DNA of 1,978 bases, from NCBI RefSeq assembly GCF_003334255.1, contig NZ_QOWU01000142.1; one strand, written 5' to 3'. The notes below the pieces were generated by a model. The model saw nothing but the letters and a program-made list of their open reading frames with translations. It was not told the origin of the DNA and did no database searches. Positions 1,041-1,433 of this stretch are shown piece after piece (position 1 is the stretch's first letter; every line of letters starts with the position of its first letter). Made by a program: the position numbers and the translations under genes. The DNA is from Escherichia coli (GTDB lineage Bacteria; Pseudomonadota; Gammaproteobacteria; Enterobacterales; Enterobacteriaceae).

Positions 1041-1056
1041 TGCGGGTGCGTTGAGG
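1041..1056 (-). promoter_or_regulatory. fbi-like (fold-back inhibition) element in the hok mRNA 3' UTR
   Basis: Plus 1041-1056 tgcgggtgcgttgagg is identical, apart from one extra g, to the reverse complement of plus 1419-1433. In the minus-strand transcript the 3' segment CCUCAACGCACCCGCA can therefore pair with the 5' end UGCGGGUGCUUGAGG, as in the known hok mRNA tac/fbi interaction. Confidence 0.5.
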
Positions 1057-1105
1057 ATGCCTGACTCATCAGAGGTGGCGAGGGATTTCTCCCCCGCCAG
1101 GTCTC

Positions 1106-1261
1106 TTACTCCTCAGGTTCGTAAGCTGTGAAGACAGTGACCTCCGTCTGGCCGGTTCGGATTCGTACCTCGCAGAGGTCTTTCCTCGTTACCAGTGCCG
1201 TCACAATGACGGTAATACAGATGACGATCAGGGCGACTAACATCGCCTTTTGCTGCTTCAT
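1106..1261 (-). CDS. hokD: Hok/Gef family type I toxin (51 aa), HokD/RelF-like
   Basis: Translation from ATG 1261-1259 gives MKQQKAMLVALIVICITVIVTALVTRKDLCEVRIRTGQTEVTVFTAYEPEE, stop TAA at 1108-1106. By memory this is near-identical to E. coli HokD/RelF and very close to HokC/Gef (single TM helix, conserved KDLCEVRIRTGQTEV core). GGAG SD lies 9 nt upstream (1274-1271). The surrounding RNA architecture matches hok/sok. Confidence 0.9.
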   Translation of the reverse strand: MKQQKAMLVALIVICITVIVTALVTRKDLCEVRIRTGQTEVTVFTAYEPEE

Positions 1262-1318
1262 AGCCTGCTTCTCCTTGCCTTTCGGCGTGTAAGAGGCTAA
1301 CCTACATGTGACTAGCAT
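1106..1318 (-). CDS. mok: mok-like (modulation of killing) reading frame, in-frame 19-codon N-terminal extension of hok
   Basis: Track ORF 1106..1318 (70 aa) starts MLVTCRLASYTPKGKEKQA and runs straight into hok. GAGG SD (1330-1327) lies 8 nt upstream of ATG 1318-1316. The same-frame, same-stop arrangement matches chromosomal mokC/hokC as I recall the K-12 annotation. The start region is covered by the predicted Sok antisense RNA. Confidence 0.55.
   Translation of the reverse strand: MLVTCRLASYTPKGKEKQAMKQQKAMLVALIVICITVIVTALVTRKDLCEVRIRTGQTEVTVFTAYEPEE
1275..1303 (+). promoter_or_regulatory. Putative sigma70 promoter of the antisense Sok RNA, inside mok
   Basis: -35 TTGCCT (1275-1280), 17-bp spacer, -10 TAACCT (1298-1303); predicted start near 1310. 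Position and layout parallel the plasmid R1 sok promoter as I recall it (TTGCGC / TATCCT). Confidence 0.45.
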
Positions 1319-1384
1319 GAAATTGGCCTCAGATTAATGTTAAGCGTCCTGCAAGACGCATAATGTTAACTGGGGCTTTTCTCT
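1310..1384 (+). ncRNA. sok: Sok-like antisense RNA (type I antitoxin), boundaries approximate
   Basis: Plus-strand transcript would begin with a single-stranded tail (about 1310-1333) complementary to the mok SD and start codon, followed by a long imperfect stem-loop (1334-1348 / 1355-1369, loop CUGCAA) and a U-rich tail GGGGCUUUUCUCU (about 1371-1384). This mirrors the Sok architecture as I recall it. Ends are not experimentally defined. Confidence 0.45.
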
Positions 1385-1433
1385 GTCTGCCTTACGGTGG
1401 CATGCCCGAGGCAGACAGCCTCAAGCACCCGCA
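1383..1433 (-). promoter_or_regulatory. hok mRNA 5' leader: tac-like element plus 10-bp leader stem
   Basis: Minus-strand 5' end GCGGGUGCUUGAGG (1433-1419) is complementary to the 3' fbi element. It is followed directly by a perfect 10-bp inverted repeat (1383-1392 / 1409-1418) with a 16-nt loop containing the palindrome GGCATGCC (1399-1406). This aligns with the plasmid R1 hok mRNA 5' end as recalled from memory. Confidence 0.45.

Follow-up and report, generated by a model that had tools for sequence, protein, structure and literature searches.

The inverted repeat at positions 1041-1056 and 1419-1433 of the 1978-nt stretch of Escherichia coli DNA analyzed here (the window) represents, with a probability of about 0.93, the end-pairing of the tac (translational activator) and fbi (fold-back inhibitory) elements of a hok toxin mRNA, encoded in a complete hok/mok/sok locus of a lambdoid prophage. 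The original prediction had read the repeat as the tac/fbi fold-back of hok mRNA, and the identity of the locus, the position of the two arms, their covariation across hok loci, and the conformational flip predicted upon in silico truncation all argue for that assignment. We observed the complementarity, its excess over chance, its conservation with covariation, and the thermodynamics of three conformers directly. The feature itself is already known and belongs to the textbook picture of hok/sok, of which the window holds an intact but ordinary prophage copy: the tac/fbi mechanism, together with the covariation of its arms, was reported in the 1990s, prophage hok loci have been catalogued, and no new biology is added here. 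Its value lies mainly in annotation quality control. The helix pins down both ends of the hok transcript within a few nucleotides, and the locus illustrates cleanly how covariation can be coupled between alternative RNA conformers.

The ends of the transcript, its processing, and the effect on translation are carried over to the window's copy from the literature on plasmid R1. By this analogy, minus-strand transcription would yield a hok mRNA that begins near G1430 and runs to the terminator at 1037-1011. During transcription, a metastable 5' hairpin would keep tac. Once the RNA is full length, its first 12 nt (tac) would pair with fbi (1056-1044), just 5' of the terminator, and, with tac held by fbi, the upstream complementary box (ucb, 1381-1372) would be free to cover the Shine-Dalgarno (SD) sequence of mok. 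With the mok SD covered, mok and the translationally coupled hok would be silent and the Sok target hidden. Slow 3' exonucleolytic trimming back to a stable hairpin (1098-1077) would then take fbi away, allowing tac to pair with ucb and freeing the mok start region. The freed RNA would be both translatable and targeted by the Sok antisense RNA (plus strand, about 1310-1386).

A complete hok/mok/sok locus in a lambdoid prophage

The minus strand of the window carries a complete type I toxin-antitoxin locus of the hokD/hokW kind (Table 1). The window matches the chromosome of E. coli JE86-ST05 at 100% identity, with the hok locus at 1202.9-1203.3 kb of NZ_AP022815.1, and its setting is the late-regulatory part of a lambdoid prophage, with replication genes on one side and rusA/Q on the other. 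All of its genes lie on the minus strand and comprise DUF968/HNH, a small phrog_1212 protein, hokD, a 34-aa ORF, and a DUF551 pseudogene. Every element of the hok locus is intact, namely the promoter, tac, ucb, the mok SD, the mok and hok ORFs, the predicted promoter and terminator of Sok, the 3' hairpin, fbi, and the terminator. The proteins that contain the window's Hok at 100% identity are 70-aa Hok family records with PF01848, the window's Hok is 92-94% identical to HokD clusters, and its PHROG match is phrog_251 ("MokW-like host killing", E = 1.5e-31). The layout of mok and hok is the same as in the K-12 annotation of mokC/hokC. Rfam model RF01794 matches the hok-sense leader over the full length of the model (1-157) at 1430 to 1256 with 117.6 bits (gathering score 59).

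Table 1. Features of the hok locus, in coordinates of the 1978-nt window
Feature	Position	Strand	Basis and remarks
hok promoter -35, TTGCGG	1459-1464	minus	Read from sequence; 16-nt spacer to -10; placed via the conserved -10/+1 spacing
hok promoter -10, TAGAAT	1437-1442	minus	Spacing conserved across 26 loci
Putative hok mRNA start, +1 G	1430	minus	-10 spacing, start of the Rfam model, non-conserved 3 nt upstream
tac element, 5'-GGGUGCUUGAGG	1419-1430	minus	Pairs with 1044-1056 in the full-length RNA and with 1372-1378 when 3'-truncated; covariation
Metastable 5' hairpin of the nascent transcript	1399-1430	minus	Predicted; tac paired with the adjoining downstream region
ucb (anti-SD), AGAAAAGCCCC region	1372-1381	minus	Folds; Rfam consensus structure; covariation
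mok Shine-Dalgarno, GAGG	1327-1330	minus	8 nt 5' of the mok AUG at 1318; read from sequence
mok reading frame	1106-1318	minus	70 aa; same frame and stop as hok; from the ORF list
hok toxin ORF	1106-1261	minus	51 aa, HokD/HokW type; annotated hokD in the 100%-identical RefSeq record
G+C-rich 3'-UTR hairpin, GGCGGGGGAGAAAUCCCUCGCC	1077-1098	minus	Present in folds; kept in all aligned loci
fbi element, 5'-CCUCAA(C)GCACCC	1044-1056	minus	C1050 bulged; folds, duplex, covariation
GCA, outer 3 bp	1041-1043	minus	Complementary to 1431-1433 at the DNA level only
Intrinsic terminator	1011-1037	minus	Hairpin 1037-1020 and U-run 1019-1011; terminator scan, folds
Sok antisense RNA gene	about 1310-1386	plus	Approximate ends; by homology to annotated K-12 sokC
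Sok promoter candidate, TTGCCT and TAACCT	1275-1280 and 1298-1303	plus	17-nt spacer; aligns with the region upstream of K-12 sokC

On the basis of R1 data (PMC9841398), the G+C-rich hairpin is likely to act as the 3' end protection of the truncated mRNA. A sub-threshold Rfam match to isrK, a Salmonella Hfq-binding sRNA, covers this hairpin and the terminator (1097-1016, minus strand; 27 bits against a gathering score of 50) and probably reflects a generic hairpin-plus-terminator similarity. It was set aside together with the other matches below the gathering score, which were RF01794 on the plus strand (18 bits, 1372-1503), ceN48, and v-snoRNA.

The putative Sok gene lies opposite the mok start region, to which the 5' tail of Sok is complementary, and its predicted terminator consists of a long hairpin followed by GGGGCUUUUCUCU. 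The Sok promoter-like TTGCCT-17-TAACCT was not listed by a simple promoter scan of the window. Although RF01794 is named "sok antitoxin", what it matches is the hok-sense strand, that is, the hok mRNA leader with the tac/ucb hairpin; read at face value, the match would assign Sok to the wrong strand.

Three further observations concern coding sequence in the window. The codon for Hok Tyr47, the conserved C-terminal tyrosine, is an in-frame UAC followed by G (UACG; 1123-1120, minus strand), and TadA A-to-I editing of a UACG motif, converting Tyr to Cys, has been reported in hokB/C/D/E (bioRxiv 10.1101/2025.08.07.668861). Upstream of hok lie a small ORF at 1507-1611 (minus strand; 34 aa), annotated as hypothetical, and an unannotated ORF at 1647-1730 (minus strand), which encodes 27 aa of strongly hydrophobic sequence, MIWPEAFAITGVAMAIAFLVYVICRCG. 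A PHROG search returned no match for either ORF.

The two ends of the hok transcript are complementary beyond chance

Re-reading of the sequence bore out the inverted repeat with its single bulged base. Positions 1041-1056 of the plus strand read TGCGGGTGCGTTGAGG and the reverse complement of 1419-1433 reads TGCGGGTGCTTGAGG, so that all 15 of 15 positions are complementary and one extra base is left over (G1050 on the plus strand, a C in the minus-strand RNA), with the arms about 362 nt apart. A gap-free repeat search lists only the half of the match beyond the bulge (1051-1067 with 1408-1424).

We found that the first 16 nt of an RNA running from 1433 to 1011 form their best downstream duplex, at -27.7 kcal/mol, exactly at the predicted site. 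None of 1000 dinucleotide shuffles of the transcript body reached this energy (mean -18.3, sd 2.2, best -27.6), and the repeat has the top score among all minus-strand 16-mers of the window when each is paired with sites 300-520 nt downstream. The claim that such a match is unlikely to arise by chance therefore holds, and on the basis of these shuffles we rejected a fortuitous complementarity. The MFE fold of the same RNA has an energy of -181.4 kcal/mol (z = -8.4) and is closed by the tac/fbi helix.

The hok transcript most likely starts at G1430 and forms a 12-bp helix

The helix as originally proposed would start at 1433 or 1432 and span 15 nt in the RNA. Comparison of hok loci argues for a shorter one. 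In 26/26 intact loci, a -10-like hexamer (TAnnnT-type or GAAAAT) ends exactly 6 nt 5' of the first G of GG(G)NGCUUGAGG. Because the hexamer keeps this distance in all 26 loci, transcription of the window's hok most likely starts at G1430, as judged from sequence; its -35 hexamer, TTGCGG, falls just under the threshold of a simple promoter scanner. With +1 at G1430, the RNA helix would therefore be most likely one of 12 bp and one bulge (1430-1419 with 1056-1044), and the outer three pairs (1431-1433 with 1041-1043) would most likely be untranscribed. In the window, the partner of 1041-1043 corresponds to promoter positions -3 to -1. Conservation points the same way, as these outer pairs are 3/3 complementary only in the window, in its close relative L002, and in L020. 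In the other 23 of the 26 loci, they are complementary at 0-2 of 3 positions, as chance predicts. Given the conserved promoter spacing and the lack of conservation of the outer 3 bp, we reduced the 15-bp RNA helix to 12 bp.

Two related claims are narrowed by this result. The RNA helix does join the 5' end to the 3' UTR just 5' of the terminator hairpin (1037-1020), as had been proposed, with the 5' end itself overestimated by 3 nt. Likewise, with +1 most likely at G1430, the match supports the transcript boundaries within about 3 nt and no finer.

A perfect 22-nt palindrome, CGATATGGGAATTCCCATATCG, with a central EcoRI site lies at 1477-1498, 13 nt 5' of the hok -35 and just past the stop of the 34-aa ORF. 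It was absent from every other hok locus collected. A protein may bind there, or the palindrome may form a terminator-like hairpin that has no U-run. A decidedly unlikely variant of the scheme combines a start 1-3 nt further upstream (1431-1433) in the window's copy and L002, giving a helix of 15 bp, with a role of the palindrome as a phage-specific hok operator. If true, the 15-bp helix would give the mRNA a tighter lock than other hok loci have and could tune toxin release to prophage induction, a kind of tuning that has been suggested for hokW.

Predicted folds support three conformers of the switch

All three published conformers have thermodynamic support in the window's copy, as judged from predicted folds. 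The nascent 36 nt are predicted to form a -21.2 kcal/mol hairpin that sequesters tac, in agreement with the transient 5' structure published for hok mRNA (PMC9841398). In the fold of the full-length RNA (1430 to 1013), which again closes with the helix, tac is paired to fbi at probabilities of 0.97-1.0 and ucb to 1319-1330, a segment that includes the mok SD GAGG. In folds truncated at 1070, 1066, or 1060, tac pairs with ucb at probabilities of 0.84-0.95 and ucb leaves the mok SD, so that the mok SD is paired with ucb in the full-length fold only. In silico removal of the 3' end thus moves the 5' end onto ucb, matching the published model (PMC9841398). The tac-ucb pairing is also conserved, with 99.3% of cells paired across 21 mRNAs and two compensatory pairs.

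The tac/fbi helix covaries across the hok family

To place the helix in its family, we gathered 30 chromosomal loci, from contigs of one genome per species, and seven plasmid loci. Both ends are intact in 26, which come from Escherichia, Kluyvera, Citrobacter, Photorhabdus, Pantoea, a soil MAG, and IncF/IncI2/pnd-type plasmids. K-12 hokC was unusable for fbi owing to IS186, and in the R1-type locus L034 the 5' half is gone because of IS150. The 26 loci, many of them closely related, contain 16 distinct tac/fbi combinations, and the shuffle controls take no account of this kinship.

Position and pairing are both conserved. When the 125 nt that follow the hok stop are searched for the best partner of the 5' 12-mer, this partner falls 45-56 nt past the stop in 26/26 loci, which represent six or more genera as well as plasmids. 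An alignment-free swap test gave a mean of -20.97 kcal/mol for the pairing of each locus's own 5' and 3' ends, compared with -18.26 +/- 0.39 for permuted ends (0/10,000). In a MAFFT alignment of 21 whole mRNAs, the six proximal pairs of the helix are formed almost always, and the pair of columns 4 and 424 is C-G in ten sequences, U-A in nine, U-G in one, and unpaired in one. RNAalifold, run unsupervised on this alignment, recovers the closing helix (columns 2-6 with 422-426).

The raw MAFFT columns under-count the distal half of the helix, as this half is offset by one column in Photorhabdus and plasmid sequences, where the bulge is absent, and the fbi of L038 is misaligned. Whole-helix pairing in these columns is 83.1%, compared with 81.7% in shuffles, 23/500 of which reached the observed value; it is barely above the shuffles because most columns are invariant. 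In a register-corrected table of the 16 tac/fbi combinations, for which the distal half of each sequence was placed by energy minimization, a procedure that leans towards pairing, both sides have changed at five of the 12 positions (4, 6, 7, 11, and 12). G-U wobble intermediates occur in L010-L012, L026, and L020. The helix thus held up when homologous loci were inspected for compensation, with changes on both sides across hok loci.

These data also bear on whether the match could be a DNA-level inverted repeat that has nothing to do with RNA folding, for instance a recombination site or the ends of a cassette. The repeat does run 3 bp past the putative transcript start, as a DNA element might. 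Against this, the extra 3 bp are not conserved, the position of the helix is kept across genera while the changes are compensatory rather than identical, and G-U intermediates make sense only in RNA. Because a DNA repeat copied as a unit would show no compensatory changes, we rejected this explanation, which, like chance complementarity, retains a negligible probability.

The pnd-type plasmid locus L038 links the two alternative pairings of tac. Its tac carries C6U and U7C, its ucb has changed from AAGC to AGAC, and its fbi from AAGCACCC to CAGACACCC, so that both partners compensate. On sequence grounds, these changes represent coupled covariation, as expected for one segment with two alternative partners. 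We also considered a 5'/3' helix that mainly stabilizes the mRNA by guarding both ends from RNases, with the translational block arising from local structure alone. It would fit the fold insofar as the mok SD is covered by ucb and not by fbi, but it appears highly improbable as a full account: in silico removal of fbi suffices to shift tac onto ucb and free the SD, the coupled tac/ucb/fbi covariation of L038 shows selection on the switch beyond end protection, and published R1 genetics favor translational control (PMC9841398). End protection and translational control are not mutually exclusive roles.

Several loci depart from the common pattern. In Photorhabdus L017, a C4-A mismatch in tac/fbi is left uncompensated, a U4-G intermediate is seen in L026, and in Kluyvera L021 the hok ORF is frameshifted and the tac-fbi pairing is retained; these loci resemble stages of drift or decay within multicopy hok families. 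Photorhabdus thracensis L014 carries two hok loci (229-601 and 1001-1147) within about 1 kb, consistent with the clustered hok/sok loci reported in Photorhabdus (PMC1635323). E. coli-type hok loci were also present in assemblies labeled Collinsella MAG, Acinetobacter idrijaensis, and Candidatus Scatousia; the Hok identity of the oddly labeled loci is 93-94% for L003, L009, L028, and L029 and 89% for L031, the latter over a 19-residue fragment. Record H58, labeled "Actinobacillus phage", has 93% DNA identity to the window's locus, and the plasmid collection includes one record of 4.9 Mb. Contamination, mis-binning, or mislabeling is the likely origin of these misplaced loci and records.

Retention of pairing in decayed loci raises the question of whether the helix of the window's copy forms as a conserved relic, without regulatory consequence in this strain, in a prophage hok copy that is inactive or decaying. 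According to work cited in bioRxiv 10.1101/2025.08.07.668861, chromosomal hok loci of the K-12 type do not mediate post-segregational killing, and the activity of the window's copy is therefore not guaranteed. In addition, the DUF551 genes beside the locus in the same prophage are pseudogenes, and decayed relatives retain fbi or the whole tac/fbi pair, as seen in relBE-hok loci that have no leader and in the frameshifted L021, which still pairs. We consider a relic unlikely nonetheless, as every hok-locus element is intact in the window's copy and the related prophage pair hokW-sokW functions as a toxin-antitoxin system in EHEC Sp5 (PMC8621323).

Comparison with known hok/sok systems

In hok/sok of plasmid R1, the tac/fbi stem keeps the full-length mRNA locked, with the mok SD occupied by ucb, and slow 3' maturation triggers tac/ucb pairing, translation, and Sok binding, with a metastable 5' structure acting during transcription (PMC9841398; PMC3851714). 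This scheme goes back to Thisted 1995, Franch & Gerdes 1996, Franch 1997, and Gultyaev 1997, as summarized in PMC9841398. The window's locus shares the order of elements with R1, beginning with the probable +1 at GG(G)NGCUUGAGG in tac and continuing through the predicted metastable hairpin, ucb, the mok SD, mok overlapping hok, the putative antisense Sok, and the G+C-rich 3' hairpin to fbi before the terminator. It also shares the switch from tac-fbi to tac-ucb upon 3' truncation, which for the window was obtained in silico.

The two systems differ in several respects. The R1 locus resides on a plasmid whereas the window's locus resides in a prophage, and the window's Hok is only about 43% identical to the R1-type toxin. 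The window's tac has an extra 5' G and a U at position 4, the latter compensated by an A in fbi. Its helix comprises 12 bp and one bulged C; the IncF-type loci L035, L037, and L039 instead have a 7-bp proximal block, an internal mismatch, and a short distal block. Moreover, the 5' leader in the window is without a segment of about 17 columns that is found in the leaders of IncF/IncI2 plasmids.

Closer relatives are found among phages. Catalogued hok loci occur in prophages and are enriched there (bioRxiv 10.1101/2025.08.07.668861), and 101 phage records match the window's locus, mostly at 87-94% identity, with annotations of MokW, host killer, or gef. The same kind of locus is represented in lambdoid and Stx phages and prophages by hokW-sokW of Sakai prophage 5 in EHEC O157:H7, where HokW was experimentally shown to be a type I toxin with a Sok antitoxin (PMC8621323). 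The tac/fbi pairing lay outside the analysis of that study, which left open shorter RNAs as a possible truncated form (PMC8621323). Compared with the O157 copies, the window is about 93% identical over its whole length, and its Hok is about three residues off the common HokD.

The toxin is likewise 92-94% identical to K-12 HokD (RelF), and the fbi and terminator sequence of the relBE-hokD locus L004 is nearly identical to that of the window. In the relBE-linked regions (L004, 1-600; L028, 740-1089; L036, 1-700, on an Enterobacter IncF plasmid), hokD is without the whole leader, including the promoter, tac, ucb, and Sok, whereas the window's locus is complete. L004 and L036 retain the 3' hairpin, an "orphan" fbi, and the terminator; the sequence of L028 stops within the hok ORF. 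In K-12 hokC (gef), an IS186 about 20 bp past the ORF replaces the 3' UTR. Unlike the leaderless relBE-hokD loci and the IS-disrupted K-12 hokC, the window's copy keeps every RNA element of the hok switch.
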